Part shown: positions 362 to 64,000 of the stretch, piece by piece
Layout: every line of letters starts with the position of its first letter
Numbering within the stretch: position 1 is the first letter of the stretch
NCBI GenBank assembly: GCA_013151045.1
Contig: JAADIY010000038.1
Span: 311 to 64,310 of the forward strand
Length of the DNA: 64,000 bases
Direction: 5' to 3'
DNA from: Gammaproteobacteria bacterium
Lineage (GTDB): Bacteria; Pseudomonadota; Gammaproteobacteria; GCA-2400775
The notes under the pieces: generated by a model
The model's input: the letters and a program-made list of their open reading frames with translations, nothing else
What the model was told of the DNA's origin: nothing
Databases searched by the model: none
Program-made: the position numbers and the translations under genes

Positions 362-488
362 CATCAGCCTCGCTATCGAATTAAATGCGCGACGAGAGTG
401 AGGACTGTCTGAGCCGATCGCATCGGCGAGTTCCGCAGCTCCGCGTATTTAATTCGATAGCGAGGTTACGCATGGAATGCGGCTGATG
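362..488. repeat. large imperfect inverted repeat / nested hairpin element
   Basis: Arms cctcgctatcgaattaaatgcgcg (368-391) and cgcgtatttaattcgatagcgagg (442-465) are reverse complements with 1 mismatch; outer catcagcc/ggctgatg extension; inner perfect palindrome gccgatcgcatcggc (413-427). Lies in noncoding DNA ~190 nt 3' of tRNA-Met. Confidence 0.5.
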
Positions 489-677
489 TGTGGGAGTCAA
501 TGCTTTTGGTTATTTTTGGCGTAACAAAAGTAACTCGCCTAAAAAAGGCGAAAAACAATGATGAAAAAGAAAGCCAATAGACATGGATTCCCTCAATTAC
601 TTGAGGACTGCGCCTACCTGCGCAGGTATGACGATAAAAGGGAATGACGTAAGAAAAACAAAAGAGAAAAAACGGAA

Positions 678-754
678 TGGTGGCTATGGGTGGACTTGAA
701 CCACCGACCCCAGCATTATGAATGCTGTGCTCTAACCAACTGAGCTACATAGCC
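678..754 (-). tRNA. tRNA-Met (anticodon CAT), 77 nt with encoded CCA
   Basis: Reverse complement ggctatgtagctcagttggttagagcacagcattcataatgctggggtcggtggttcaagtccacccatagccacca folds as cloverleaf; anticodon loop ttCATaa; close to E. coli elongator tRNA-Met. Confidence 0.85.
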
Positions 755-851
755 GTACCGAAAGGGGTGAGTATTCTATCGCACTCGCCTGGGACTCGCC
801 AAGCAGTGTTTTACCCGAAAACCCAATAAACGAATACTGATTAACTACTAT

Positions 852-1943
852 TTAAACGTTAAAGCGGAAATGTACGACATCACCGTCGTGCATGATGTAT
901 TCCTTACCTTCTAGACGCCATTTACCGGCCTCTTTGGCACCTGACTCACCTTTGCAGGCAATAAAGTCGTCATAGGCAATGACTTCAGCGCGGATAAAGC
1001 CTTTTTCAAAATCGGTGTGAATACAGCCTGCACCTTGCGGCGCGGTTGAACCTGCTGTAATTGTCCAGGCTCTGACTTCTTTTTCACCGGCGGTAAAATA
1101 AGTTTCTAGACCTAGCAAGTCGTAACCTGCGCGAATGACGCGATTAAGCCCTGGCTCATCGAGACCTAAGTCTGAGAGAAAATCACCTTTATCGGCATCA
1201 TCAAGCTCGGCGATGTCAGATTCGACTGCGGCACAAACGGCGACGACGCCAGCGCCTTCACTTTTTGCGTAGTCTTCTACCGCGGTGAGAAACGGATTAT
1301 CAGAAAAGCCTGATTCATCAACATTGGCGATATACATGGTTGGCTTTAAGGTGAGCAAATGCATGTCTTCTAACATGGCTAATTTGTCTTCGTCTAAGTT
1401 CATGCTGCGTACCGGCTGACAGGCATCGAGCACGTCTCGTACTTGTGTAAACAGTTCTAGCTTAGCTTTGGCTCCTTTGGGGTCGCCCTTAGCCATTTTA
1501 GTGGCACGGGCTAAAGCTTTTTCTACTTTGTCTAAATCAGCCAAGGCTAATTCTGTGTGAATCACTTCGATATCAGCCAGCGGTTCTATTTTACCGGCGA
1601 CATGGGTCACGTCATCATCTTCAAAACAGCGTACGACATGGGCAATAGCATCAACTTCGGAGATATGACCTAGAAATTGATTGCCTAAACCTTCGCCTTT
1701 TGATGCGCCTTCTACCAAACCGGCAATATCGACAAACTGCATGGTGGTGGCGATAGTTTTTTGTGGGTTTACAAGTTCTGCAATCGCATCTAAACGTGTG
1801 TCAGGCATAGGCACCATGCCAACGTTTGGCTCGATGGTACAAAAAGGGTAGTTTTCTGCAGCAATACCCGATTGGGTTAGCGCATTAAACAAGGTCGATT
1901 TACCAACATTCGGCAAGCCAACAATTCCACATTTAAAACCCAT
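852..1943 (-). CDS. ychF: redox-regulated ATPase YchF (Obg-family GTPase)
   Basis: 363-aa ORF, N-terminal GxxxxGKS P-loop ([15 protein letters not shown]), C-terminal TGS domain; conserved ychF-pth-rplY-prs synteny. Confidence 0.93.
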
Positions 1944-1971
1944 GCTGTTTCCTTAATTCTCTGCAGCGAAC

Positions 1972-2556
1972 TTATGTCGGTGCTTTTGTGTGCAAACGTT
2001 TCATCACGGCTTCGAACTCACCTTCGATGATTGCTTCTATTTCAGCTAACGACTTGTCGAGAACATCGTCCAATAGCCGCTTATCGTCTGGTGACGGCTT
2101 ACTTAGTACATACGATGATACTTGGCTTGAATGACCTGGATGACCTATACCAATTCGTAACCGTAAAAATGCTTTGCTGCCTGTGCTTTGGCAAATATCG
2201 CGCAAGCCATTATGACCACCGTGACCACCACCACTTTTTAATCGCACTGTACCCGGCGGCAAATCGAGTTCATCGTAGATGACCAAGGTTTGTGCTGGTT
2301 CGATTTTATAAAAGTTGAGTAGCGGCGCTACGCTGCCACCACTGTCGTTCATAAACGTTTGTGGTTTTAATAAGCGGACGTCTCCGGCGGGGGTATTAGC
2401 TAAAGCTAACTCACCTTTAAATTTCGATTCTTCGCGAAAATTTGCTTGGTAACGTCTAGCGATGGCATCAAGCAACCAAAAACCCGCATTGTGACGGGTT
2501 TCAAGGTAACGCGGCCCTGGGTTACCAAGGCCGACAATACATGCAATGGCTGTCAT
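1972..2556 (-). CDS. pth: peptidyl-tRNA hydrolase
   Basis: 194 aa; N-terminal LIVGLGNPG..Y..TRHNAGF motif typical of Pth; synteny. Confidence 0.93.
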   Translation of the reverse strand: MTAIACIVGLGNPGPRYLETRHNAGFWLLDAIARRYQANFREESKFKGELALANTPAGDVRLLKPQTFMNDSGGSVAPLLNFYKIEPAQTLVIYDELDLPPGTVRLKSGGGHGGHNGLRDICQSTGSKAFLRLRIGIGHPGHSSQVSSYVLSKPSPDDKRLLDDVLDKSLAEIEAIIEGEFEAVMKRLHTKAPT

Positions 2557-2598
2557 GATGCTAACGCTATAACAGTATTAGCAAGACGCGAAACGAGC

Positions 2599-3255
2599 CT
2601 ATTCGGCTGCTGCGTCGCCTTCTGCTGCGTCGCCTTCTGTGGCAGCGGCATCATCAGCATCATCTATCGCACCACGTGGAAGATGAATACTGGCTACTGG
2701 CTGGGCATGTTCAGCACCGTGAGTTAAGGCAACAACCGTAACACCGTCAGGCACAACAATGTCTGACAAATGCGCTGCATCACCGACATTCAATTCAGAA
2801 ATATCAACGGTTAAGAACTCTGGCAAGTCTTTTGGTAAACAGCTAATTTCAACATCAATAGAGTGATGAGAAACATTACCACCTTGCAATTTAACGCCTG
2901 GCGCAACGTCTTCACCGGTAAAGTGAAGCGGCACGTTCATGATGATTTTTTCGTTAGCGTTAACACGTAATAAGTCAAAATGCAGAACACGTGCTTTACT
3001 TGGATGGCGTTGCAGGTCTTTTAAGACAACGTTCTCGGCCTTAGCACCGTCTACGGTGACGTCAAGAATATGCGAATAAAACGCTTCGTTATCTAGCTGA
3101 TAAGCAAGGTCTTTATGGGCAATAGAAACAGACACTGAGTCTTTACCATCACCATAGATAATCCCTGGAACCATGTCGCTATGACGTAGGCGGCGGCTCG
3201 CACCCTTCCCCTTGTCTGCGCGTGTTTCCAAGCTTAATTTAAATTCAAAACCCAT
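2599..3255 (-). CDS. rplY: 50S ribosomal protein L25 / general stress protein Ctc
   Basis: ORF with KGKGASRRLR motif near N-term, acidic C-terminal tail; second in-frame ATG (3255) has GGAGA SD 5 nt upstream so chosen over 3267. Confidence 0.85.
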   Translation of the reverse strand: MGFEFKLSLETRADKGKGASRRLRHSDMVPGIIYGDGKDSVSVSIAHKDLAYQLDNEAFYSHILDVTVDGAKAENVVLKDLQRHPSKARVLHFDLLRVNANEKIIMNVPLHFTGEDVAPGVKLQGGNVSHHSIDVEISCLPKDLPEFLTVDISELNVGDAAHLSDIVVPDGVTVVALTHGAEHAQPVASIHLPRGAIDDADDAAATEGDAAEGDAAAE

Positions 3256-3310
3256 GTTGTTCTCCAATATCGCCCAATAATATTAGGCTATTACCAAGGC
3301 TCTAGCTTTA

Positions 3311-3341
3311 CTAGCCTAAAACCAAAAAATCCTCACTTGCG
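3311..3341 (-). terminator. rho-independent terminator downstream of prs
   Basis: On minus strand: stem cctcact/agtgagg (7 bp, loop ggtcgca) followed immediately by auuuuuugguuu; located ~50 nt after prs stop and before rplY promoter region. Confidence 0.55.
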
Positions 3342-3391
3342 ACCAGTGAGGAATGCTTGCGCATCTTGTTGCGGCATTTTTAATGCCGCCA

Positions 3392-4330
3392 TTAATCTAT
3401 AAATAGCGAGCTTACTGATTCTTCTGCGTTAATTCGGCGCATGGTCTCTGCTAGCAATTCAGCAACGCTAAGCTGACGTATTTTTTTGCACGCTTTGGCA
3501 TCTTCACTCAATGGGATGGTGTCTGTAATCACCAACTCATCAATTTGCGAGCCTTCAATATTCTTGACCGCCTGACCTGACAATACGGCATGGGTGCAGT
3601 AAGCAAACACTTGCGCTGCACCTTTTTCTTTTAGCGCGCGTGACGCTTCGCATAAAGTCCCTGCCGTATCAACCAAGTCATCGACCAAAATACAACTGCG
3701 ACCTGCTACGTCGCCTATAATATTCATGACCTTAGCCATATTGGCTTGCGGGCGACGTTTATCGATAATCGCTAGATCAGCATCATCTAAGCGCTTAGCC
3801 ATAGCTCGCGCCCTGACCACGCCGCCCACATCTGGCGACACAACCATTGGCTTGCCACCCACTCGGCGCCATATATCGCCGAGCAACACCGGTGACGCAT
3901 AGACATTATCGACACCAATATTAAAAAAGCCTTGTATCTGGTCTGAGTGCAAATCTACTGTTAGTACGCGATCTGCACCGGCACTAGCAATCATGTCTGC
4001 GACCACTTTTGCGCTAATCGGCACGCGCGCTGAACGCGGGCGTCGATCTTGGCGCGAATAACCAAAATACGGTATCACTGCGGTGATGCGGCTCGCTGCT
4101 GAGCGTTTGACTGCATCGACCATCATTAACAATTCCATAATGTGGTCATTAGTCGGCTGACACGTCGGCTGAATAATAAATACATCGCGGCCACGGACAT
4201 GTTCAGCGAGCTCAACCTGAATTTCACCATCGCTGAAACTACCCACAAAAGCTTTACCTAGCGGTATATTTAGGTAGCGCGCAATATCTTTGGCCAGTGG
4301 CCGATTGGCATTACCTGAAAATACCATCAT
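3392..4330 (-). CDS. prs: ribose-phosphate pyrophosphokinase
   Basis: Strong Prs similarity (PRPP-binding motif, [11 protein letters not shown]...); six-frame ORF extends to 4462 but that overlaps tRNA-Gln; start trimmed to [13 protein letters not shown] matching Prs N-termini. Confidence 0.9.
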
Positions 4331-4428
4331 GGTCTTATCAATGAACATTGTGATCCACGTCATGCCCGTCGGCACGCTGCTATGAGTAGCGCTTACCGCC
4401 CTCACTAGGGCAGAAGCTAAAATGATAT

Positions 4429-30668: not shown

Positions 30669-32408
30669 ATGCTTACCAATACAACTACTGAGATCGTTCC
30701 CGTCGGTAAAGCCAAAATAATACGCGTCTTGCATATCGAGGATGATCGCTTCGACGCACGTTTTATATCAGCAGCCATCGCCGGTCATCACTGCCACATT
30801 ACCCATAGTAAAACTCTAGCGAACGCCATTAAACGGCTCAACCGCTATGCACATAATGTAGTGTTGCTTGATTTGAATCTGCCCGACTCACAAGGGCTTA
30901 ATACTATAGATACTCTACATGAACACTTCCCTGAGCTAGCTATCGTTGTCTTATCTAGCAACAACGAAGAAGATAACGCATTAGCAGCCGTGCGCCTCGG
31001 CGCTCAAAACTATATACCCAAAAATGTCGCCGATGCAGCACACCTTTTACGTACGCTGCATTATGCAATTGATCGCAAAGAGTACGAACTCAACTTAATA
31101 AGTTTGGCTTTTCACGATCCTGTTTCTAACTTGGCCAGTCGAAATTTATTTTTCAATACTTTACAACAATCTATGCAGCGATGCGATCGCACAAAAGAAC
31201 GCATGGCGCTCATGTTTCTCGATCTTGATCATTTTAAAGAGATCAATGATCAATATGGCCATGATGCCGGTGATCACGTATTGCGCGAATGCGCGCAACG
31301 GCTTTCTAAATGTGTAAGAAAACAAGATTTAGTCGCAAGACTAGGTGGCGATGAATTCACTGTTATTCTTGAGAATATCAAAGATTGTCGTAATGCCAAG
31401 CGTATCACCCAAAAAATTGTTAACAGCTTAAGTCAATCGATTGAAATTAATGGCATGCAAGTTAACATCAGCGCTAGTATCGGCATTTCATTTTATGATG
31501 GCCAGGTAGAAATTCCTGCCGAAACACTGATAAAGCAAACTGACATCGCCATGTATCACGCCAAAAAAGCAGGCCGCAATACCTACAAATACTTTATGCG
31601 CAACATAAAAGAGATTAATTCTCCAGGCGACAATATTTCTGCCCTACTCAATCATGCTTTAGAACACAATGAATTTCATCTTCACTATCAGCCTCAAATC
31701 GATGCCGAAACACATGAGCTAGTTGGCGCTGAAGCATTATTACGTTGGAACAATAAGGAGCTAGGCTCAGTATTACCGTCCGTATTCATTCCCTTACTTG
31801 AAGACAGCGGCCATATTGTTGAAGTCGGTGAGTGGGTATTAAAAACAGCCTGCCAAAACTGGGCAAGCTGGGTCAAGAAAGGCAAAATCAATACAAACAC
31901 GACCATTTCCGTCAATCTCTCAGCATTGCAATTTACCCAGGAAGACATTGCAAAAACCATTGCTAAAATACTTAGCAAAACCGGCCTCCAAGCCAGTCAA
32001 CTCGACTTAGAGCTCACTGAAAGCACCTTGCTCAGCAACACCGAACGTAATTTACATACGTTGAAGAAAATCAAAAACCTCGGTGTTAGCCTAACTATCG
32101 ATGACTTTGGTACCGGCTTTAGTTCGTTGCCTTATCTAAAACATTTTTGCTTTGATCGCTTGAAAGTTGACCGCTCTTATATCAACCATGTTCTCGACAA
32201 CTCCGTCGACGCGGCAATTTCATCGTCGATTATTAACTTAGCAAAAAACTTAGACCTCAAAGTCATCGCAGAAGGCGTAGATAGCTGGGATAAAGTCAGC
32301 CGTGTTAAATCTTATGGTTGCACAATCATGCAAGGCTTCTATTACAGCAGACCTCTTGCGGCGAATACCTTTTTAGAGCGTTATGCCTGCGCCGCTATTG
32401 TTCATTAA
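30669..32408 (+). CDS. response-regulator receiver-GGDEF-EAL protein (c-di-GMP turnover)
   Basis: N-terminal REC domain (LLDLNLPD), intact GGDEF (RLGGDEF) and EAL (EALLRW) motifs. Confidence 0.88.
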   Translation: MLTNTTTEIVPVGKAKIIRVLHIEDDRFDARFISAAIAGHHCHITHSKTLANAIKRLNRYAHNVVLLDLNLPDSQGLNTIDTLHEHFPELAIVVLSSNNEEDNALAAVRLGAQNYIPKNVADAAHLLRTLHYAIDRKEYELNLISLAFHDPVSNLASRNLFFNTLQQSMQRCDRTKERMALMFLDLDHFKEINDQYGHDAGDHVLRECAQRLSKCVRKQDLVARLGGDEFTVILENIKDCRNAKRITQKIVNSLSQSIEINGMQVNISASIGISFYDGQVEIPAETLIKQTDIAMYHAKKAGRNTYKYFMRNIKEINSPGDNISALLNHALEHNEFHLHYQPQIDAETHELVGAEALLRWNNKELGSVLPSVFIPLLEDSGHIVEVGEWVLKTACQNWASWVKKGKINTNTTISVNLSALQFTQEDIAKTIAKILSKTGLQASQLDLELTESTLLSNTERNLHTLKKIKNLGVSLTIDDFGTGFSSLPYLKHFCFDRLKVDRSYINHVLDNSVDAAISSSIINLAKNLDLKVIAEGVDSWDKVSRVKSYGCTIMQGFYYSRPLAANTFLERYACAAIVH

Positions 32409-53777: not shown

Positions 53778-53825
53778 ATGAACCATATTGCTGGACCTGA
53801 TATCTACTGTTATCCTCATGAATGA
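53778..53825 (+). other. 15-codon upstream ORF (MNHIAGPDIYCYPHE) with strong SD, stop overlapping start of downstream GGDEF-EAL gene
   Basis: AAGGAG at 53762-53767, ATG 53778; TGA 53823-53825 overlaps main ATG 53818 (ATGAATGA). Confidence 0.35.
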
Positions 53826-56130
53826 GTCTATTTATGAGGTGACAATGGAGGGTTTAAGTAATTCCACCACACTGCTGCTTGAAGAAATTCAGCAGTTACG
53901 TGCCGAGCTAAGCACTACCCAGCTAGAAGCACAAAAGCGCGCAACCGAACTTGATAAAAGCGAAGAACGCTTGTCTCTAGCCATGCGCTGGGCCAACGAT
54001 GGCTTATGGGATTGGAATATTGAAACTAACGAAGTCTATTACTCTCCTCGCTGGAAAAGCATGTTGGGCTATGAAGAGAATGAGCTTGATAACAATATCA
54101 ATACTTGGGAGAACCTAGTCCACCCTGACGATAAAAACATGGCAATACAAGCCGCTCAGGATTATCTAGCGGGTCGAGCAGACTCATTTGAAATTGAAAT
54201 ACGAATGTCACACAAAGATAATCGCGATATTTTTGTACTGTCCCAAGCATTCATAGTCGGTCGCGAGCCTGATAATAAGCCAGTTCGCCTCGTTGGCACT
54301 CATATCGATATCACTGAGCGCAAAAAAACAGCAGCGTTCAATAACAATAATGCCAAAATTCTAGAGATGATTGCCATAGGGAATCCCGCATCTGATATCT
54401 ATAATGCTATTGCCTTAATGTATGAAGACCGTCACCCAGGCTTACGATGCTCCATGCTCGAGCTGCATGGCAGCAAACTTATGCACGGGGGAGCGCCAAG
54501 CTTACCTAGCGAATATTGTAAAGCCTTGCACGGCCTAGAAAATGGCCCCAGTGTTGGCTCATGTGGAACATCGACTTTCAGCGGGAAACGTGTTCTTGTC
54601 GAAAATATTGAAACAGACCCTAAATGGGGAAACATTAAACACCTAGCATTGCCTCATGGTATGCGGTGTTGCTGGTCCGAGCCGATTAAAAGCTCTTCTG
54701 GAGACGTGCTAGGCGCGTTTGGTATGTACTATAACCACCCTGCGTTACCAAATGAAGACGAATTAAATGACCTTAGTTCTGCGGCACGACTAACAAGTAT
54801 TGTTATGGAGCGAGATCAAGCTCAAAAGCGTATAAGAGCATTAGCTTATAGCGATGAATTGACTAAACTTTCTAGTCGCGCCCACTTTTACCTGCACCTT
54901 GAAGCAGCCATCAAAACCTCTAGTCGATACAAACATCGTTTTGCCCTGCTATATATTGATTTAGATGGCTTCAAGGGTATTAATGATAGTCTTGGCCATG
55001 ATGCTGGTGACTTACTCCTGATAAATATTGCAAAACGTTTGCAAAGCACCTGTCGTGACATTGACTTTATTGCACGCCTCAGTGGCGACGAGTTTTGTAT
55101 CCTCATTAGCGAGCTAAGTGATAATTATACAGCTGCCAATGTGGCGCAACGGTGTCTTAATACTGTATCACAACCTGTCGAACTTTCTACGAGAAAGCAT
55201 ACACCAGCATGCAGTATTGGCATCGCGCACTACCCTGATGACGGCAACGACCTAGCAAGCTTAATCAAGGCAGCAGACACTGCTCTTTACGCAGCAAAAA
55301 AAAATGGCAAGAACCAATACGCTTTCTATAAACCAGAGCTCACCCGTCAAGCCGAACATCGTTTCCTAGTTGAACAATATCTACGAGAAGCAATTGAAAA
55401 TCAGCAACTTTCTCTCGTCTATCAACCACAAATCAATCTTAAAACCGGAAAAATTATCGGCGTCGAGGCATTATCACGCTGGGATCACCCGATATTAGGC
55501 GGAGTTCCACCGGTTGAATTTATTGCCACAGCTGAAAGAATCGGCATGATTAAACCGCTCACTGAATGGGTACTAAGCACCGCTTGCCAACAAGCCGTTG
55601 CCTGGAAAAAAGAAGGCTTTCCTGTACCGCGTATGGCAATCAATATTTCGTCAAGTCATTTTATCGATAAAGAAATTGTGCCACTAATCAAACGAATTAT
55701 TAATGAAACAGGAATAACCCCGACCGAATTAGAATTGGAAGTGACCGAAAGCGTTGTCCAAACTGACCCTAGAAACCTTTCCATTTTTCAAAACTTAAAA
55801 AGTCTTGGTATTCAACTAGCCATTGATGATTTCGGAACCGGCTATTCATCTTTTGCTTCTCTTAAACACCTTAAAGTTGATTGCCTAAAAATAGACAAAT
55901 ATTTTGTTGATGATATGCTTGACGATGAAAAAGCATTACTCCTTATTGGCTCAATGATAGAGATGGGCCATCAGTTGGGTTATAGCATTGTTGCCGAAGG
56001 GGTGGAAACGTCAGAACAGTTTTATACTTTAAAAAATCTAGGTTGCGATACTGCTCAGGGATATTTATTTAGTAAACCCGTCAAAGCTCAGGCTATTGCT
56101 AAATTAATAAAAAATGATTATAACATTTGA
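53818..56130 (+). CDS. PAS-GAF-GGDEF-EAL signalling protein
   Basis: ORF from TTG 53788; first ATG 53818 (MNESIYE). PAS (WDWNIETNEVYYSPRW), GAF-like region, GGDEF (RLSGDEF), EAL (EALSRW, DDFGTGYSS). Confidence 0.88.
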   Translation: MNESIYEVTMEGLSNSTTLLLEEIQQLRAELSTTQLEAQKRATELDKSEERLSLAMRWANDGLWDWNIETNEVYYSPRWKSMLGYEENELDNNINTWENLVHPDDKNMAIQAAQDYLAGRADSFEIEIRMSHKDNRDIFVLSQAFIVGREPDNKPVRLVGTHIDITERKKTAAFNNNNAKILEMIAIGNPASDIYNAIALMYEDRHPGLRCSMLELHGSKLMHGGAPSLPSEYCKALHGLENGPSVGSCGTSTFSGKRVLVENIETDPKWGNIKHLALPHGMRCCWSEPIKSSSGDVLGAFGMYYNHPALPNEDELNDLSSAARLTSIVMERDQAQKRIRALAYSDELTKLSSRAHFYLHLEAAIKTSSRYKHRFALLYIDLDGFKGINDSLGHDAGDLLLINIAKRLQSTCRDIDFIARLSGDEFCILISELSDNYTAANVAQRCLNTVSQPVELSTRKHTPACSIGIAHYPDDGNDLASLIKAADTALYAAKKNGKNQYAFYKPELTRQAEHRFLVEQYLREAIENQQLSLVYQPQINLKTGKIIGVEALSRWDHPILGGVPPVEFIATAERIGMIKPLTEWVLSTACQQAVAWKKEGFPVPRMAINISSSHFIDKEIVPLIKRIINETGITPTELELEVTESVVQTDPRNLSIFQNLKSLGIQLAIDDFGTGYSSFASLKHLKVDCLKIDKYFVDDMLDDEKALLLIGSMIEMGHQLGYSIVAEGVETSEQFYTLKNLGCDTAQGYLFSKPVKAQAIAKLIKNDYNI

Positions 56131-56649: not shown

Positions 56650-57297
56650 TTATTCGTTTGATGATGTGCTAAAGCTTATTTTCAATTCATTAATTCGACG
56701 TTTAATTCCCACCGCCAATGCTGAATTTGGATTCGCCGCCAACCATTGCTGCCAAGTCTTTACCGCCTGCGAGTGATTTTTAAGCTCAACATAAACGACA
56801 CCTAAATTAAATAAGGTAGCGCCATCATCAGGTGAAAGCTTAAGGTTTTCTTCTAGCAAGCGGCGAGCTTCATCAACATTGCCTTGTTCAAGCTTGATTG
56901 ATGCCAGATTAGAACGAGCATCGATGTGTTGCGGATTCAACTGCAAAAGACGTTCATAAAGTGGCGCCGCATCGTCGAACCTTCTAATCATCAAGCTTGC
57001 ATTAGCAAGCCCCATTAGCGCCATCTCATCATCTGGATTTTCATTTAAAAGCGTGCGTAAAAACTGGATTTGCTGCACTGGATTAGACGAACCTATATCC
57101 GGTGGATGGGTGGATGGTAACTCCTGCTTTGATCCGGCCGCATCAAGATCAGCCAGCGCTATAATCTTTGGCGCTAATGGTGTTGCAAGAGCCGCTTTAG
57201 AATCATTAGCGCCAAATTGATTGAGTGCAATGATGGTTGACCCTGCGACCAAAACCAGGGTTGGTACTACGAAGCGATAATCACGCAGTAATTTCAT
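56650..57297 (-). CDS. TPR-repeat protein with N-terminal membrane anchor
   Basis: ORF to 57315; GGGAGG SD favours ATG at 57297 (MKLLRDY…); TM segment then 3-4 TPR units; 26 nt after upstream gene. Confidence 0.7.
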   Translation of the reverse strand: MKLLRDYRFVVPTLVLVAGSTIIALNQFGANDSKAALATPLAPKIIALADLDAAGSKQELPSTHPPDIGSSNPVQQIQFLRTLLNENPDDEMALMGLANASLMIRRFDDAAPLYERLLQLNPQHIDARSNLASIKLEQGNVDEARRLLEENLKLSPDDGATLFNLGVVYVELKNHSQAVKTWQQWLAANPNSALAVGIKRRINELKISFSTSSNE

Positions 57298-57323
57298 TGT
57301 TAAACGACCTCCCATAGCAGCAA

Positions 57324-59735
57324 CTACTTTATATCACCTGAATCAGCATGATGAGCGATGCCTTTATTGGTCTCGATAAAGTTCACAATCGAGGCTTCAT
57401 CAAACTCATCAAATGTTTCAAGCTTGGCCCATGCAGTCACAGCAATTTTTGATTCCATTAGCGGATACGGCGCCAAAATTACATACTCAGGATAACGTTT
57501 TAAAATATCCTCAAGTTTGGCAACCGTATCAGGGCAGGCTTTACGACAATTATATTGAATCACCACCCCCCCAACCTTTAAGTTATAGACTTGCAATGCT
57601 AACGGCAACGGCACTTGATAAGCACCCCAATCGGCGATGAAGGGTAAATGTGCCCCTGAAGTTGGCGGGTTGCTACTATAAGGTTCATGCGTTTCAAGAG
57701 GATGGTAAATATACTCACCGCTTGCTTGTGATGCAGTCTTACCCTTCTCGGCACCGTCTTCTTTCTCAGATAATTTTGGTACACGCCGGGTATCCCCCAA
57801 CAAGGCCAAGTCAAATTTCTCGTCAGGAATACCGCTGTTTATCTTAACCTGATCGATCTTTACCTCTTCGGTCCTGCCATTATCGAGCACACGCTCTAAT
57901 CGACCAGGCATGGAATACATTTTGTCTATTTTTTTATAATCGTAAAATTTAGTTTCAATGATACCGCCAAACTGCTTGCTTTCTGTTTGGTGCCCTTCCG
58001 CTTTGTTTACCGGAAATTTTTCTATCAGGTTTGTCGGGTAAGCTGTATTTGCGTCCACCCAAAGTTGCGGCACGGCTTGCCCTGTTTCGTTGGCGCCAAT
58101 AACATAGTAGCGATGTGGTTCATGGCCTTCTGCATGCTGATGATCGTGATCTGTATGAGAGCCGTCTTTTTCTTCTTTTTCCTCAAATTCCATGACTACA
58201 TCCACTGCGATGCCACTTCGAAGATAAGAACTGCCGGGTACATCACCGGCCAAACGCTGTATTGCCTCATCAACCGATAGACTTGATAAGCCATAGAGCG
58301 AAGATAATAAATTTTGTCGCGGTGTCACCCAAAAACGACCGTCCTCAAGTATGGATACACTTGTCCCAGCTTGCGCCAGGCGCACTAGCCCACCTTCTGC
58401 TTCGGTTCTTAACCAGTTTGGAGCTTTGTAATATTGCATTCGCTGAGAAAGCGTCGAGGGATTTTTGGCTGGCTGTGTCTCCACATCCTTTTCTTCACCA
58501 TTCTCTTTTGCACTGACGCCAACTGAATCCACTTTCCAGGTTGCCGTTTCGCGCCATGAAAGGTCAGAATACGGTGCGCTCACACTTTGCATTTGCTTAA
58601 TAATCTTCTTCACTAGTTGCCGCGAACGTCCCTCGCTGTTTAGCAAGTCATCACGGACACTGAGCGGCACCTGTACTAACTCGACATCCATCGGCACATC
58701 ACCCGTCGAAAAGGATCGAAGAGTTTTCAGGGTCTTGCCATCTAATTCAATGAGTTCACGGTTGAGTTGATCCAACACATAAAGCTTATCGCCATCGAAG
58801 CTCCCCTCGACTAGACCACCATTGATCGTAGCAGCGTTAATTTCTGTAATAACCGGCCACGGGCGCACTGAGAAATCTGTCTCATAAAGTACAACATAAC
58901 TTTTTTTGATACCTAAGCCGCGCCAACATAAAACTGCCATTTTAGTCTCATCGGGAGACAGCAATATTGCCTGTGGTGCAGAACAAGTTGGAACTCCACG
59001 ACCATCACCATGCACATTAATCAGGCTAAGCCCGTTGGTCTCGCTATCGGCTGTCAACAAAAAAGGCTCTTTTGCCGACACAATAATACTGGTCGGGCCA
59101 AGCCCCGTACGTTGAGTGGCAGGACTAACTGGTGATGGCGTCGAATTTTTTAAATCATAGGGATAGTTAACAATGTAAGAATAGCGTTCACTTTCAACTT
59201 TAGATTGCGGATCAAAACGCGCCATATAAAACCCCGCGCTATCCTGCCGTTGAACCAGATCGTAGATCTTGTTTATTTCTGTGACCTTAACGCCGAGCCT
59301 ATCACCATTTTTAGGGTCAATTTTATAAAGCCCTGAACGCGGCCAACTAAACGTAACAAACTGCTCTCCATCATTGCTAAATATACCTGGCCCACGATAA
59401 GGAAGCACATGTTTAATTTCATGATCAGTTAGGTCAATTATCGCTGTTGACTCCGAGTACCAATGCTGAGCCAATAGTTGTTTACCATCCGGCGAGGAAA
59501 CCAAACGCCAAGGACCCGCACCCGCATAGATCTTGCGTAGCGTTTTTCCAGATGAAAGATCAACAACCTGAATGTTGTTATTCGCTGCATTAGCAATGTA
59601 AGCTAATGTAGTTTTCTCAATGGGGGAAGAGACAGAAGAATTCGTTACCTCAGCAGCGCTTGCTCCGATACCAACAAAAAGTGTCAACATTGTTAAAAAT
59701 GATATTAGAACTCGCATAAACTTCTTACACCTCAC
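57324..59735 (-). CDS. secreted multidomain protein: YVTN-type beta-propeller + LolA-like middle domain + His-rich linker + C-terminal DUF3105-like domain
   Basis: 803 aa; signal peptide (MRVLISFLTMLTLFVGIGASA); N-terminal repeats typical of YVTN beta-propellers; HTDHDHQHAEGHEPH linker; C-terminus (…SGAHLPF…VYNLKVGGVVIQY…YVILAPYP…IAVTAWAKLE…) matches DUF3105 shape with NLEHG-like motif altered. Confidence 0.75.
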   Translation of the reverse strand: MRCKKFMRVLISFLTMLTLFVGIGASAAEVTNSSVSSPIEKTTLAYIANAANNNIQVVDLSSGKTLRKIYAGAGPWRLVSSPDGKQLLAQHWYSESTAIIDLTDHEIKHVLPYRGPGIFSNDGEQFVTFSWPRSGLYKIDPKNGDRLGVKVTEINKIYDLVQRQDSAGFYMARFDPQSKVESERYSYIVNYPYDLKNSTPSPVSPATQRTGLGPTSIIVSAKEPFLLTADSETNGLSLINVHGDGRGVPTCSAPQAILLSPDETKMAVLCWRGLGIKKSYVVLYETDFSVRPWPVITEINAATINGGLVEGSFDGDKLYVLDQLNRELIELDGKTLKTLRSFSTGDVPMDVELVQVPLSVRDDLLNSEGRSRQLVKKIIKQMQSVSAPYSDLSWRETATWKVDSVGVSAKENGEEKDVETQPAKNPSTLSQRMQYYKAPNWLRTEAEGGLVRLAQAGTSVSILEDGRFWVTPRQNLLSSLYGLSSLSVDEAIQRLAGDVPGSSYLRSGIAVDVVMEFEEKEEKDGSHTDHDHQHAEGHEPHRYYVIGANETGQAVPQLWVDANTAYPTNLIEKFPVNKAEGHQTESKQFGGIIETKFYDYKKIDKMYSMPGRLERVLDNGRTEEVKIDQVKINSGIPDEKFDLALLGDTRRVPKLSEKEDGAEKGKTASQASGEYIYHPLETHEPYSSNPPTSGAHLPFIADWGAYQVPLPLALQVYNLKVGGVVIQYNCRKACPDTVAKLEDILKRYPEYVILAPYPLMESKIAVTAWAKLETFDEFDEASIVNFIETNKGIAHHADSGDIK

Positions 59736-59997
59736 TAAAAACTAATTTGAACTACTGATACTAAACATGAGCATATGACACATATAAATGTAATGTCATG
59801 TACTGAAGGTTTGCCCATGAATGAAATACGTAAAGAATCTTATTTCGCGCAGCTTAAGAAGTGGACAACTCAAGCACTAAGTGCTCTATTAGCTTGCTAC
59901 TTTGTAATAATCGATCATAGCAATGTGTCAGTATTTGGGCGGGCAACTGATAACAACTGCAGATGTACATTAACCTTTCAGTTAAAAATCTATGTCC

Positions 59998-60027
59998 TGA
60001 TCGGTTGCTAATATTAGCAACCGATCA
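59998..60027. repeat. perfect 30-bp palindrome (15-bp arms, no spacer) between cytochrome gene and beta-propeller gene
   Basis: tgatcggttgctaat|attagcaaccgatca; 44 nt downstream of cytochrome stop; possible terminator/attenuator or protein-binding site. Confidence 0.6.
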
Positions 60028-60070
60028 CCGCCCATCTCTTCATAAAACTGACACTGTCCACATACCGAGA

Positions 60071-63000
60071 CTAACGTCGCCGTCCGTGACGGCCACCACT
60101 TCTCGTTGTCGTTGTCGTCGCAACGGTAGTAGTAGCAGGAGCAGGAGCGCTTGTTGACGCAAGTGCAGCAGATTGCCCGGTAGCAAAACCAAGTGGCACT
60201 GAAGTATCACCTCTGCCATTAGTACGGCTAGTGGCAGTCTGGAAGCTCCAGCTAACTGCTGCATTACTACAGTTATTTGAAAAATCACAAATACCTGCCG
60301 CTAATCGTGCTGTATAAGTAGCCCCCGTGCGTAAGAAGATATCATGAGCAAACAAGGCCCATGTACCATCACCGATCTGATCAACAAATGCCGGTACTGG
60401 TAACCCACGCGAATCGACCAGGGTAAACGTTCTATTGTCTACTCCTGTCACTGGCTCGTTAAAAGTCACTTTAGCAACAAAGTTGCTGTAAACACTGCTT
60501 GCGCCATTTACCGGATAAGTTTCTGTAACACTCGGTGCTACATTATCCGCAGCCAAATTAATCACCCAGCTCTTCACCTCCATAGGTACAGGTGGCGCGC
60601 CTTCAACCACTGCAGGCTCAGTAGATGGCGTACGCCCACCATCACATAGTCCCTTCAGAACACAAGGTTCTAGCACTGGCAAAGGAGCGTTTGCCGGATC
60701 AGCGAGATACGCTGCTGACTCTTGGTCCAGGTCAGTGTTAGCCAAATTACCCAGGAACTCCTCAGCAATAATCGCCTCTAGAGACTGGTAATACATCGCC
60801 GCAGTAACAGCAATAGGGCCCACCGCATTAGCTGGAATGATGACCGAATAACGATCACTCAGATCTGCAACTGCGGCAGCCATAGGCAATGGGCTCAAAC
60901 GTGTGTCAATCAGAAACGAATCATCAAACAGATCGCCATCACCATCGACATCCATATACTGTGGAATACCGCGCGGGTTATTTCGATCAATCGCCACACC
61001 GCTAGCATCAATAGGCACGCCATCATCGTTAGTGACTATATTGACCGCCGTTGCATAAGCCAGCGCCAGAGTCGGGCAGCCATCACCCAGCGTAGCAACT
61101 GCTCTCATTATGCGAGCATAAGGATCTGGTGATCCAGCTCTCACACTCCAGTCACACCCTGGGAAGTTAGGGTCGACCATCTCTTCGGTGGTGAAGTAAC
61201 CGACACCGGTAGAAGTGCGATCCCACACTGAGTCGTGAATGTCTAACTCAGCACCTGTGGCCGTATCAAAAGCTCTCACTGCGACCCAGCTAATACGCCC
61301 TTCAGGAAAACCTGTGGGGAAATTATGACCGCTACCATCGTTAGTCACCGTCAATGTCGATATCCCTACAGTGTCACCAGCATTAGCGGTAACCGCTGCT
61401 GACAGATCCAATGACACGGCATTACGTAGACGATCCCAGGCCATCCGCGAATGATGCGTCGGTGTGCCTGTACCCGTCGAGTTGTAATAGGCCCAATGGA
61501 ATTTACTACCTGAGCTAGCAGACGTAAAGCTGGCACTCGATAGCACTGGATAGGGTTGCACCGCACCACTGCTGCCACCTCCGCCATGGCGACGACCACC
61601 ACCGCCAGTAGCAACCGTAGCACCGAGAAGGTTGGTTACATATGCATTGCCACCGACGAAATGATGGGTGTATAAAGCGTCACGCACAGGCCCACGAAAG
61701 CCAACCACCCCTCTAAGCGGTGCAATTGACCTGCCGTTGCTATACAAAGTCTGGGTCGTACCAGGCTGACCAAAATCCTGCTGCATATGACAGGTTTGAC
61801 AATCACGCTTAAAAGCGGGATCAAAGTTTGCCTGCGTTCTGCCAGTTACGGGATCAATACGGTCTGCATAACGACTATTTGACCACTCGCTATAGGTTCG
61901 CTCAATCGGAAAGCCACCTACCCATTGTTCTAATGGGTTAAGAACCGTGACTGGATTAGTCACATCATGACAAGCACCGCAAAACTCGGAGCGTTCAAAT
62001 TTGACATGATAGTAACCTTCATGCCCGCCATGACGACCTCCGCCTCCGCCGCCACGACGGCCACCACCGTGACCACCACCAGCAAAACGATCTTGGTTAG
62101 CTATCGTGGTATCAAAAACGTCGCTGATGTACGGATCAACACCGCCAACAGCGCCATTCCATATTGGTCCAAAACGCGCTGGTCGGTTAATAGCATTGGG
62201 CGACAAACGGAACGTACCACCACCAATACCGTAGCCTAAGTTAGGGCTGTTCGCATCCGGAATGTTACCTACGTTACCTGAATTACCCAAGATACTCGAA
62301 CGTGAACCACTACCCTGAGAAGGTATATATTCCACCCCTGATTGCACATAGGATGAATAAGGTGTGCGCTTGGATTCTGCATTGGTATGACAGACCGCGC
62401 AAAATATACCGCGCTTACCACTTGCAGTATTGCGATAAAGCGACTGCGCCGAGTCTATGACTGTAGCATAGGCTCTGTCAGTGCCATTTGATGAGGTGGG
62501 ATCATAGTTGGGGATGACCGCTGCGTGCTCAAAATTACTGCCATCACCCAGGTCATCTATATTGACGCCGGCAAGTGGCACCGCATCAATATAGTTAGAG
62601 GGCATATGACAACGCGAGCAAAAGTCATCAAAAAGCGAACCGGACCCTGTCGTAGTCGCCGTCGCACCACCTCCGAGATTAAATCTAGATGAAGTGCCGT
62701 CGATAGCAAACGGGTTGAGGTCATTGCAAGCATAGGCCTCGGTACCGTCTATCGCCCGGCCTTGCGCATTAAGGTTCTCAAGCACATCGCCGCAACCGTC
62801 GGTCGCTGTCGCGCGTGCCGTTAACAAAAATACGGCTTGCCAGGCTGGATCGCGCCAGGCATTGGCCTTCATAGAGCCATTCCATTCACTGAAAATACGA
62901 TCATGACAACCTGAGCACTGGCCAGGATTGTTAACATTATTCCAGTCGCTCTCAAAGGGCGGCGCATGGCCTGTGAAGCCACCAAAAAAACCCGCTTCTT

Positions 63001-63139
63001 GCAAATTATAAGGTGCCGGCTCGGCAATACGGTTTGGTAACTCGCCATGGCGAGCATGAGCCTGTGAAACAAAACCGATCAATCCAATTATCGCGCCCGA
63101 CACTGCAAGCGCACGTAGCCAATGTGCTTTAACATCCAT
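60071..63139 (-). CDS. secreted pentaheme c-type cytochrome with G/R/H-rich inserts and C-terminal Ig-like (SbsA/Big_5-type) domain
   Basis: ORF to 63307, but signal peptide and GGAGA SD support ATG 63139 (MDVKAHWLRALAVSGAIIGLIGFVSQAHA). Five CxxCH: CSGCH, CSRCH, CAVCH, CGACH, CQTCH; two CxxCH…SEW.(G/N)S units; GGGHGGGRRGGGGGGRHGGHEG and GGGGRRHGGGGSSG inserts; C-terminal Ig-like domain; poly-Thr + RSGGRHGRRR tail. Confidence 0.8.
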   Translation of the reverse strand: MDVKAHWLRALAVSGAIIGLIGFVSQAHARHGELPNRIAEPAPYNLQEAGFFGGFTGHAPPFESDWNNVNNPGQCSGCHDRIFSEWNGSMKANAWRDPAWQAVFLLTARATATDGCGDVLENLNAQGRAIDGTEAYACNDLNPFAIDGTSSRFNLGGGATATTTGSGSLFDDFCSRCHMPSNYIDAVPLAGVNIDDLGDGSNFEHAAVIPNYDPTSSNGTDRAYATVIDSAQSLYRNTASGKRGIFCAVCHTNAESKRTPYSSYVQSGVEYIPSQGSGSRSSILGNSGNVGNIPDANSPNLGYGIGGGTFRLSPNAINRPARFGPIWNGAVGGVDPYISDVFDTTIANQDRFAGGGHGGGRRGGGGGGRHGGHEGYYHVKFERSEFCGACHDVTNPVTVLNPLEQWVGGFPIERTYSEWSNSRYADRIDPVTGRTQANFDPAFKRDCQTCHMQQDFGQPGTTQTLYSNGRSIAPLRGVVGFRGPVRDALYTHHFVGGNAYVTNLLGATVATGGGGRRHGGGGSSGAVQPYPVLSSASFTSASSGSKFHWAYYNSTGTGTPTHHSRMAWDRLRNAVSLDLSAAVTANAGDTVGISTLTVTNDGSGHNFPTGFPEGRISWVAVRAFDTATGAELDIHDSVWDRTSTGVGYFTTEEMVDPNFPGCDWSVRAGSPDPYARIMRAVATLGDGCPTLALAYATAVNIVTNDDGVPIDASGVAIDRNNPRGIPQYMDVDGDGDLFDDSFLIDTRLSPLPMAAAVADLSDRYSVIIPANAVGPIAVTAAMYYQSLEAIIAEEFLGNLANTDLDQESAAYLADPANAPLPVLEPCVLKGLCDGGRTPSTEPAVVEGAPPVPMEVKSWVINLAADNVAPSVTETYPVNGASSVYSNFVAKVTFNEPVTGVDNRTFTLVDSRGLPVPAFVDQIGDGTWALFAHDIFLRTGATYTARLAAGICDFSNNCSNAAVSWSFQTATSRTNGRGDTSVPLGFATGQSAALASTSAPAPATTTVATTTTTRSGGRHGRRR

Positions 63140-63440
63140 ATTAATTCTCCATTTGGGTTTATTCCACTCAAACCCACTTAACTTTAATTCAGCCTCATTT
63201 CTTAGCCAAATTTTATTTCCGTTGATTAATGTATCAGCTTTCGTTACCAATAAGCAAATCAAGTTTGCAACAACCCTGTCCAAACTCGGGCATAGACCGC
63301 CAGCCAAAAATTACTAGGAGTGCACGACATGAATACATCAGCAACAATACGCCAACTGTTTCAGTTTATCCGAAGCCATTCTGAAAAATGGATTTTGCCA
63401 GCAATAATTCGTCGGCACTGCAACAGTGAATTTTTTCTAA

Positions 63441-64000
63441 CTAACGGTTCACCGAGCTTTTTATCAAAAAATATTTGTTAGTCATCTTAGGAAAATCACC
63501 AATCAAATTACGCAACTTATCAAGATCACTAACATCACCTCGATATGCGATACGATCAAACATTGCAGCCAATGCTAATGTAGATTGAGCCAACTCAGGC
63601 CTCTCCACAGCAACGCGTCTCGCAAAGCTAGATACCGTTTCACCTTGGCTTCGTTTTATTCCTAAATTCTCAGCCTTCCTAATAAATTTATCTATCAAAC
63701 GAATTGCAATAGGCAATGGGCGCTTGCGATTAATAAGATAAAAATAGAGAAACAGAGCCAAACCAAGTGCTAAGCTAGCAATAACAACAATCATCGCAAT
63801 ACGCCATGGCTCAGCACCACCAAATATTTTTTCTAAAACACCTTTTTGTGATTGACGATCATAACTAACCACCCATCGATTCCACACATAACCGACAGCA
63901 TCAACACGTTGTCGTAGCGATTTCATCCAAGGAAACTCACCATACGCGCCGCTGCCAACAAGCTGTAAATCTGACTCACTTAAGGCATCGGCAATTCCAT
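63441..64000 (-). CDS. DUF4129-like domain membrane protein (5' end beyond window)
   Basis: Frame remains open from 63926 to window edge (…GIADALSESDLQLVGSGAYGEFPWMKSLRQ…); TM helix (IAMIVVIASLALGLALFLYFYL) then C-terminal domain with DUF4129-like pattern (…TVSSFARRVAVERPELAQSTLALAAMFDRIAYRG…). Confidence 0.6.
   Translation of the reverse strand, partial: GIADALSESDLQLVGSGAYGEFPWMKSLRQRVDAVGYVWNRWVVSYDRQSQKGVLEKIFGGAEPWRIAMIVVIASLALGLALFLYFYLINRKRPLPIAIRLIDKFIRKAENLGIKRSQGETVSSFARRVAVERPELAQSTLALAAMFDRIAYRGDVSDLDKLRNLIGDFPKMTNKYFLIKSSVNR

Follow-up and report, generated by a model that had tools for sequence, protein, structure and literature searches.

A large pentaheme cytochrome from a family linked to Alternative Complex III operons is paired with a beta-propeller-DUF3105 protein in a conserved three-gene cluster

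We analysed a 64,000-nucleotide stretch of a gammaproteobacterial contig (JAADIY010000038.1; the whole stretch is called the window here), near one end of which three co-oriented genes occupy positions 56650-63139 of the minus strand. In the direction of transcription they encode a large pentaheme cytochrome, an 803-residue protein that joins a beta-propeller to a DUF3105 domain (the partner), and a tetratricopeptide repeat (TPR) protein (Table 1). An earlier note on this DNA had seen here an uncharacterised extracytoplasmic, heme-based redox cluster belonging to none of the canonical Mtr/Omc, Nrf or Hao systems, and had recognised a pentaheme cytochrome with an Ig-like domain, a beta-propeller/DUF3105 protein with a modified DUF3105 signature and a TPR protein with a membrane anchor. 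Motif counts, profile searches, AlphaFold models and N-termini read by eye agreed with these descriptions, and the co-occurrence of the cytochrome with the DUF3105 protein, which the note had proposed as a check and whose lack it would have counted as a refutation, was found as well. Its suggestions on the extent of the cluster and on an outer-surface location fared less well and are taken up below.

The longest open reading frame (ORF) of the cytochrome (60071-63307) begins with a TTG at 63307, and the plausible start is an ATG at 63139. The N-terminus, MDVKAHWLRALAVSGAIIGLIGFVSQAHA followed by RHGE, reads by eye as a Sec-type signal peptide of about residues 1-29. Exactly five CxxCH motifs are present, all of them in one N-terminal domain, which is followed by a beta-sandwich 'stem' domain, a Big_5 bacterial Ig-like domain and a Thr-rich/RHGRRR C-terminal tail. 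The family to which the protein belongs has a mean column identity of 58%, and the heme motifs are conserved in 75-77 of its 77 members, motif 1 being essentially invariant and the stretch from which weak profile matches to ExtKL and to the solved structure 5ze8 arose. Other invariant loops are WNGSM after heme 1, HHF(I/V)GGNAY and, in the stem, GSGHNFPTGFPEGR (H605), PGCxW (C662) and GDGCPTL (C688); a further stem pattern, FP[TS]GFPEGR, pulled family members from genomes. The conserved His and Met residues are H373, H492, H493, H605, H315, M90 and M91. AlphaFold modelled the stem best, with strands spanning residues 575-785, and the Big_5 domain superposed on Ldt, SbsC and CopC-like domains. 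None of the known cytochrome families (Mtr/Omc, Nrf, Hao and others) reached threshold in Pfam and NCBIfam, Cyc2 not being examined separately: the MtrC domain stayed at E 0.059 and 13 bits against a cutoff of 30, NrfA, HAO and Otr gave no match for the window cytochrome, and 38 members gave sub-threshold NrfH matches only. No CxxCK motif was evident in the window cytochrome, nor did a pattern search find one in three relatives, and an identical-sequence lookup returned no match.

Cytochrome c552, Geobacter ExtKL, GSU2801 and the PHCs of cable bacteria form one pentaheme family, in which a heme domain is followed by an Ig-like domain (PMC11976967). The window cytochrome follows this plan, with its five CxxCH motifs in one N-terminal domain ahead of an Ig-like beta-sandwich, and its fold superposes on that of the solved member, c552 of Thermochromatium tepidum (5ZE8). 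In c552, too, an N-terminal helical domain with five c-type hemes precedes an Ig-like beta domain, and heme motifs 1, 3 and 5 of the two proteins align. However, the window cytochrome, at 1022 residues, is 2.5 times larger than c552 (~400 residues), with long inter-heme insertions, a much larger stem with invariant loops, the extra Big_5 domain and the low-complexity tail; c552 has no assigned function, and its sequence likeness to the window cytochrome lies at the detection limit. Profile searches of the PDB with the whole cytochrome family returned only 5ze8, and this marginally.

ExtKL was the most frequent weak NCBIfam match (17 of 38 members, best E 1.1e-5); the ExtKL/MccSep equivalog NF040886 gave the window cytochrome 16 bits against a cutoff of 250, with the heme-1 motif alone aligned. 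ExtKL is MccSep, a polysulfide reductase in which heme 2 is His/Cys-ligated and a selenocysteine lies in a D-G-U-P loop of the Ig-like stem (D323-G324-U325-P326), and Cys-type homologues of it have been reported (bioRxiv 10.1101/2025.11.18.688581). With MccSep/ExtKL (GSU2937-2936) and the PHC family (sPHC/lPHC, GSU2801) the window cytochrome shares a five-heme cap and an Ig-like stem, and the invariant GDGCP loop of its own stem recalls the D-G-Sec-P loop of MccSep at the level of the motif. Unlike MccSep, it has neither a conserved heme-ligating Cys nor a selenocysteine and is more than twice the size, and the genes found beside the family are those of Alternative Complex III (ACIII) or of the DUF3105-propeller protein, in place of the ext porin-cytochrome cluster of ExtKL. 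Apart from CxxCH, the only heme-domain cysteines conserved in the family are the C117/C149 pair, both of which are missing from the window protein. We place the window cytochrome in the PHC superfamily by fold, outside the ExtKL family.

The partner also begins with a Sec-type signal peptide (about residues 1-27, read by eye), which ends in LFVGIGASA before AE. AlphaFold modelled the protein confidently (pLDDT 84.8, pTM 0.85) as a seven-bladed propeller, which gave weak YVTN matches, a middle domain that matched nothing in the searches, and a C-terminal DUF3105 domain. The best matches of the propeller were generic lactonase/YVTN propellers, and Trp, Pro, Gly, Arg and Asp make up most of its invariant residues; it lacks the Cu- or heme d1-binding His/Cys clusters of hydrazine synthase, cd1 nitrite reductase, N2O reductase and thiocyanate dehydrogenase. 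The DUF3105 domain was modelled as beta-alpha-beta-beta-beta-alpha with a Cys-x3-Cys at the start of a helix, and this motif (C730-x3-C734) is invariant in the cytochrome-linked DUF3105 fusions. A profile of the domain matched ScsC (4gxz; E 0.0019) in such a way that YNC-x3-CP fell on the YNCPYC active site of ScsC, which, like the order of secondary-structure elements in the model, would fit a thioredoxin-like fold for DUF3105. No profile match to Sco was obtained for this domain.

The signature of the DUF3105 family consists of PPTSGPH, WGVH, VHNLE[DH]GG and DHH. The window copy keeps only PPTSGAH and HH, with WGAY and VYNLKVGG in place of the two central motifs, and the partners from Acidobacteriota keep HNLEH. 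Standalone DUF3105 proteins (PF11303; P0334-P0456) are ~170-240 residues long, with an N-terminal Arg/Lys-rich stretch and a single transmembrane (TM) anchor, whereas the window copy is the C-terminal part of a secreted protein that also comprises a propeller and a middle domain. The standalone proteins keep five to six His and one Glu (PH.PY, SGPH, WGVH, VHNLE[DH], DHH), a set that suggests a metal site, and have CxxxC only variably. In the fusions it is the other way round: CxxxC is kept throughout, and the window clade no longer has WGVH and HNLE. A single paper in the literature searched mentions DUF3105, which has no known function. The full propeller-DUF3105 architecture is rare, as 1.84 billion representatives yielded only ~20 clusters (50% identity) that have it.

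The TPR protein starts with KLLRDYRFVVPTLVLVAGSTIIAL, in which a basic stretch and one hydrophobic TM segment can be read by eye, and continues with about three to four TPRs. Many TPR families of Pfam matched it, among them TPR_CcmH_CycH (PF23914), with 47.8 bits against a cutoff of 42; the NrfG model scored 14 bits against a cutoff of 306, and generic TPR models outscored those for CcmH and NrfG.

The order cytochrome-DUF3105-TPR was the same in gammaproteobacterial relatives with three different flanks, namely a MoxR-DUF58-TgpA operon (the window and locus L088), a divergent TonB-dependent receptor (L089/L090) and integrases and a transposase (L001-L003). The recurrence of the same trio in three settings implies that the unit consists of three genes, has moved as a block and ends before the edge of the window. 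TPR orthologues lay directly 3' of the DUF3105 gene in L001-L003, L047, L088, L089 and L091 (68-86% identity), and the complete trio was also present in a metagenome-assembled genome (MAG) of Nitrospiria (L086) and in L087, where the TPR protein was 40% and 37% identical, respectively. The cytochrome-DUF3105 pair occurred without the TPR gene, in unrelated neighbourhoods, in Acidobacteriota and in Entotheonella (L010); the DUF3105 gene was directly 3' of the cytochrome gene in L010 and in Acidobacteriota including Thermoanaerobaculia (L004, L006, L008, L016, L028, L064, L092 and L093). Since the TPR gene follows the pair in Gammaproteobacteria, Nitrospiria and L087 and is missing from Acidobacteriota, the pair is the core and the TPR protein an accessory of some lineages.

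Adjacency of the pair spanned at least four phyla and held in nine of nine metagenome loci fetched for the DUF3105-linked subfamily, and every examined locus with the propeller-DUF3105 architecture also had the cytochrome. In L086 (478-12936) two tandem cytochrome-DUF3105 pairs are followed by a single TPR gene, suggesting a pair-specific partnership. Pairwise identities of the cytochromes correlated with those of their partners across 13 cytochrome-partner pairs (78 values; Spearman 0.87, Pearson 0.96). A different arrangement was seen in L009 (1419-10975), where a single DUF3105-propeller gene comes first and two cytochrome paralogues in a row, each ~54% identical to that of the window, come after it. 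The module of L086 and of L087 (2446-12274) is followed by opposite-strand genes with FGE-sulfatase domains and a Reg_prop-like gene; these were dropped as module members, as they are confined to the two loci.

A search of 5.8 billion proteins for relatives of the cytochrome gave 610 matches, all named 'Ig-like domain-containing' or 'hypothetical'. The genomes nearest the window were the Gammaproteobacteria MAGs NORP163 and NORP174; beyond the four closest relatives the matches were typically 49-57% identical over the full length and came from Thermoanaerobaculia and other Acidobacteriota, Ca. Entotheonella, Fimbriimonadaceae and others. There was no cultured host among the matches listed, and a Terriglobia seed of the ACIII-linked type also gave only MAG or metagenome sequences. 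Genomic context was scored at 79 species-representative loci from GTDB genomes. At 42 of these the cytochrome gene was preceded, in the same orientation, by actB, which was accompanied where examined by the rest of the ACIII operon, and at nine others the ACIII operon was divergent, so that ACIII adjoined the cytochrome at 51 of 79 loci. Five loci had only a dihaem cytochrome c and a NarI-like cytochrome b directly upstream, nine had the DUF3105 protein gene adjacent, 13 had flanks too short for scoring, and one showed none of the scored contexts.

The Pfam-confirmed gene order of an ACIII-linked locus, L065, is cytochrome c, Nitrate_red_gam, multiheme ActA, ActB and NrfD-type ActC, then ActD, cytochrome c ActE, an ORF at the place of ActF that matched nothing in Pfam, and the large cytochrome, whose start overlaps the stop of the preceding ORF. 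The place of the family beside the actABCDEF operon is that expected of an electron acceptor of ACIII or of an added subunit, and the fact that most of the family ends ACIII operons speaks for a part in respiratory electron transfer more than for metal handling as such. The literature searched gave no account of this cytochrome as a subunit or partner of ACIII. A preprint on extracellular electron transfer (EET) in peat Acidobacteriota describes clusters (EET1-4) that are porin-containing systems of 8-13 hemes, unlike the present family. A neighbour-joining tree placed all DUF3105-linked cytochromes, that of the window included, in one clade nested among the ACIII-linked ones, and both kinds of cytochrome are present in a single MAG (DASYTJ01; L012 and L064). 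Judged from the midpoint-rooted tree, the linkage to ACIII appears to be ancestral and the pairing with DUF3105 derived.

Several observations concern the ACIII operons themselves. A dihaem cytochrome c and a NarI-like (Nitrate_red_gam) cytochrome b precede actABCDEF in L065 (874-12763) and 50 other loci (e.g. L029-L083) from uncultured Acidobacteriota and Myxococcota, the last gene encoding the ~950-residue pentaheme cytochrome; no description of this ACIII variant was found in the literature searched. The NarI-like protein is fused to ActA in L085. At this ACIII-linked Acidobacteriota locus (L085, the same as L017; 14891-23057) genes for a TonB-dependent receptor, a cytochrome c and a caa3 oxidase lie near the cytochrome gene, together with one for a 531-residue propeller protein of the YncE/lactonase/cytochrome-d1-like kind, which gave a weak tblastn match to the window propeller (36% identity over 56 residues).

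The gene content, the domain architecture, the co-conservation and co-divergence of the pair, the linkage of the family to ACIII and the likeness of the fold to c552 are findings. In view of them we consider it about evenly balanced whether 56650-63139 is a self-contained operon whose three products, the cytochrome, its propeller-DUF3105 partner and the TPR protein, make up a periplasmic redox module. The Sec-exported cytochrome, with a c552/ExtKL-type cap and stem and an additional Big_5 domain, would carry electrons to or from the respiratory chain, as may be surmised from the paralogues that end quinol-oxidising ACIII operons. The secreted partner would probably dock on the cytochrome. Its thioredoxin-like DUF3105 domain would then be the likeliest redox-active or ligand-binding end, because the invariant CxxxC is the only invariant redox-capable feature of the partner. 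The membrane-anchored TPR protein could tether or chaperone the complex.

A number of results weigh against this reading. The ACIII link is absent from the window itself, where ActA, ActB, the NarI-like protein and cytochrome c had no match anywhere and the module has no ACIII gene; moreover, no gene for an electron donor or acceptor, a quinol oxidase or ACIII was found in the window or adjoining any DUF3105-type locus, so that the connection of these loci to the respiratory chain is one of homology only. The heme domain of the cytochrome was modelled with low confidence (mean pLDDT 57.7), as expected of a model made without cofactors. For the partner, the match to ScsC is borderline, with CxxxC where ScsC has CxxC; two His and the Glu of the family signature are gone from the window DUF3105 domain, for which reason the ancestral site may be inactive in this copy; and no conserved metal or cofactor site was found among the invariant residues of the propeller. 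The TPR protein is close to consensus, and its best PDB matches were generic (consensus TPRs and OGT).

The second and third genes might instead serve to mature or assemble the cytochrome, with CxxxC keeping the CxxCH thiols reduced and the TPR protein acting as apocytochrome chaperone, which we think unlikely. CcmG and ResA keep apocytochrome thiols reduced, and CcmI, CycH and NrfG are apocytochrome chaperones. Consistent with such roles, a TPR_CcmH_CycH match is recorded for every TPR orthologue and passes its cutoff in the window, the N-terminal TM anchor is typical of CcmI, and the DUF3105 Cys motif aligns on the active site of a periplasmic thiol oxidoreductase, ScsC. However, the better scores of generic and consensus TPRs and the poor one of NrfG speak against a dedicated chaperone, and at the Acidobacteriota loci the pair manages without a TPR protein. 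ACIII-linked paralogues from the same phyla, and even from the same MAG (L012 versus L064), have neither partner; all five heme motifs are canonical CxxCH, for which a special lyase is unnecessary; and a thiol-reductase role would leave the ~650 residues of propeller and middle domain unaccounted for. That the genes are neighbours by chance and functionally unrelated is very improbable. A 335-nt spacer with a strong hairpin does part the cytochrome and DUF3105 genes in the window, and most members of the cytochrome family have no such partner, but adjacency that has persisted in at least four phyla and amid many unrelated flanks contradicts chance, the tandem duplication of the pair and its co-divergence point to partnership, and the rare propeller-DUF3105 architecture always came with the cytochrome at the loci examined.

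Two further explanations concern what the module would act on. It could bind metals (Cu, Fe or Mn) or carry out metal redox chemistry in the envelope by means of its His-rich loops, the CxxxC/His site of DUF3105 and the CopC-like Ig domain, an idea to which we give little credence. ScsC is a copper-tolerance protein, CxxxC with the conserved C-terminal His (DHH) recalls Sco proteins at the level of the motif, standalone DUF3105 proteins keep their five to six His and Glu, and both large window proteins carry His-rich inserts. On the other hand, those of the cytochrome are clade-specific and variable in length, the window DUF3105 domain has lost part of its His/Glu signature, and the CopC-like fold is a generic Ig-like sandwich; being internal, the Big_5 domain cannot present the N-terminal His with which CopC binds copper. 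No copper-resistance, Sco, porin or metal-transport gene is conserved beside the module, the TonB-dependent receptor being confined to L089/L090. Nor did anything point to the outer membrane: no porin-like gene was found in the module or its conserved flanks, and no lipobox or secretion-system partner for the cytochrome, so that the outer-surface location, which the earlier note had suggested beside a periplasmic one, found no support. These data give no backing to a role in metal handling or on the outer surface, nor do they refute one. Still less probable, in our estimation, is a reductase of sulfur or selenium compounds like MccSep/ExtKL, in which the Cys of the stem D-G-C-P loop would stand for Sec and CxxxC would handle per- or polysulfide. 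The fold class is indeed shared with MccSep and c552 (bioRxiv 10.1101/2025.11.18.688581; PMC11976967), GDGCPTL is invariant in the domain equivalent to the Ig-like stem of MccSep, and Cys-type homologues of MccSep have been reported (bioRxiv 10.1101/2025.11.18.688581). Against this, the heme domain has no conserved Cys for His/Cys ligation of heme 2, C117/C149 being absent in the window, the ExtKL model scored far below its cutoff, C662 and C688 may simply form a disulfide, and many hosts belong to aerobic soil lineages with caa3 oxidase genes adjoining the locus.

A periplasmic redox module, the reading that we prefer, can be extended to the family as a whole, and this extension is tentative and rather speculative. 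The ~1000-residue pentaheme family could be an unrecognised terminal module of ACIII in uncultured soil Acidobacteriota and Myxococcota that, in one clade, was re-partnered with the propeller-DUF3105 protein to give a new cytochrome-c-driven periplasmic oxidoreductase with CxxxC as its site (dithiol/disulfide or Cu). The kinds of component are known, namely a PHC-fold multiheme cytochrome, a propeller, a thioredoxin-like domain and a TPR protein; the ~1000-residue family, its systematic linkage to ACIII and the propeller-DUF3105 pairing appear to be undescribed in the literature searched. Multiheme cytochromes set which electron acceptors and donors a microbe can use, and hundreds of members of this family are present in metagenomes from soil, peat and the subsurface. 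Its coupling to ACIII suggests a missing piece of the respiratory chain in abundant soil Acidobacteriota. The pairing with the propeller gives DUF3105 a first functional context and, if the oxidoreductase reading is true, would give it a first function and the respiratory chain a new electron sink or source. The compact gammaproteobacterial version, with three genes, seems a handy start for heterologous expression and biochemistry.

Some traits are specific to the clade of the window. Two Gly/His/Arg-rich inserts in the heme domain of the cytochrome were found in the gammaproteobacterial clade only and are absent from Acidobacteriota, Entotheonella and other members; their length varies even between relatives that are 85-96% identical, and P0002 has a far longer G/H run at the position of insert 2. 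Being restricted to one clade and variable in length, these inserts cannot be core to the function of the family. A His-rich acidic insert in the middle domain of the partner (low pLDDT at residues 525-537) occurs in most gammaproteobacterial relatives, one of five sampled (P0125) being without it; P0126 (62% identical) has a different His-rich insert at the same position, and more distant relatives lack it, two of them having another His-rich stretch in another loop. The earlier note was thus right that low-complexity segments are present in both large proteins, but those segments, which it had offered as evidence for metal binding, are insertions largely confined to one clade; they may bind metal ions without being a conserved feature of the system. 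The cytochromes of this clade have further lost the C117/C149 pair, carry H315N and M91K, and have the Thr-rich/RHGRRR tail in place of the second Ig-like domain of most Acidobacteriota members.

The 335-nt spacer between the cytochrome and DUF3105 genes is also confined to the gammaproteobacterial clade, the other clades having 10-130 nt. It contains a stem-loop with a free energy of -22.2 kcal/mol (z = -6.1), which is kept by compensatory changes in L088, L089 and L001. This stem-loop might terminate transcription in part, or affect the stability of the mRNA, and so set the ratio of cytochrome to partner. Scans for promoters and terminators gave sites no more numerous than in shuffled sequence. 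The G+C content of the cytochrome gene (51.4%) exceeds that of the window (45.3%) and of the adjacent DUF3105 gene (45.2%), which is compatible with its Gly/Ala/Arg-rich composition or with acquisition from a high-GC lineage.

Table 1. Coordinates of the three genes, their domains and motifs, and adjoining features in the window (residue numbers refer to the encoded protein)
Feature	Position	Strand	Remarks
TPR gene	56650-57315	-	221 aa; ORF list and Pfam
Propeller/DUF3105 partner gene	57324-59735	-	803 aa; ORF list and Pfam
DUF3105 domain	57363-57683	-	partner residues 685-791; E 7.6e-21, 75 bits vs cutoff 25
His-rich acidic insert EKDGSHTDHDHQHAEGHEPH	58113-58178	-	partner middle domain, ~520-541
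Two helices, then beta-rich middle domain			partner residues ~385-640; AlphaFold
7-bladed YVTN/lactonase-type beta-propeller			partner residues ~41-357; weak YVTN-repeat matches and AlphaFold
Stem-loop	59998-60027	-	perfect 13-bp stem 3' of cytochrome stop, in spacer 59736-60070
Pentaheme cytochrome gene	60071-63139	-	1022 aa from ATG at 63139
Big_5 bacterial Ig-like domain	60236-60547	-	cytochrome residues ~865-968; Pfam E 1.8e-10
Beta-sandwich 'stem' domain	60770-61417	-	cytochrome residues ~575-790, after heme domain
Gly/Arg/His-rich insert 2	61565-61606	-	cytochrome residues ~512-525
Heme motif 5, CQTCH	61787-61801	-	residues 447-451; aligns with CQTCHM of 5ze8
Heme motif 4, CGACH	61967-61981	-	residues 387-391; family pattern C[ASG][AST]CHDVTN
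Gly/His/Arg-rich insert 1 GGGHGGGRRGGGGGGRHGG	62027-62083	-	cytochrome residues ~353-371
Heme motif 3, CAVCH	62387-62401	-	residues 247-251; aligns with GVNCVACHT of 5ze8
Heme motif 2, CSRCH	62606-62620	-	residues 174-178
Heme motif 1, CSGCH	62903-62917	-	residues 75-79; followed by family motif WNGSM
Five-heme domain			cytochrome residues ~40-560
TgpA-like transglutaminase, C-terminal fragment (DUF4129 region)	63441-64000	-	outside the module; runs off the window

The earlier note had counted four co-oriented genes, the fourth encoding a 161-residue 'DUF4129 protein' (63441-63926), and had suggested that the cluster may continue past the edge of the window. The frame upstream of this ORF is free of stops to base 64000, so that the ORF is the C-terminus of a longer gene; the fragment has a DUF4129 domain by Pfam. 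In L088, a metagenome contig with a 96% identical cytochrome, the orthologue is a 667-residue TgpA-like protein with TgpA_N, Transglut_core and DUF4129, preceded by a MoxR AAA+ ATPase and a 335-residue gene product in the DUF58 position, for which no Pfam match is recorded (418-4379). MoxR-DUF58-TgpA is a usual operon arrangement. No DUF4129 match adjoined the module in 83 other loci searched by tblastn, and the MoxR, DUF58 and DUF4129 genes were dropped as module members since they are not conserved with it across other loci. The cluster thus has three genes, and what L088 shows beyond the edge is a neighbouring operon. A Thermoanaerobaculia MAG (L004, 3734-8007) likewise has a MoxR/DUF58/DUF4129/DUF4350 operon at a distance of ~1 kb from its cytochrome-DUF3105 pair; the presence of a MoxR-type operon near the module in both L088 and L004 is probably a coincidence.

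On the other side of the module, a 443-residue gene of no known function lies immediately 3' of the TPR gene in L088, L089 and L047; it was dropped as a module member because it is found in only some gammaproteobacterial relatives. The window has at this place ~0.5 kb without a convincing ORF and then, on the opposite strand, a gene for a GGDEF-EAL (c-di-GMP) protein with a PAS domain at its N-terminus (53788-56130, plus strand). A second GGDEF-EAL protein is encoded at 30669-32408 (plus strand), and the remainder of the window holds housekeeping genes, including ppx-ppk1, tsaD, moaA, dnaG-rpoD and tRNA-Met.

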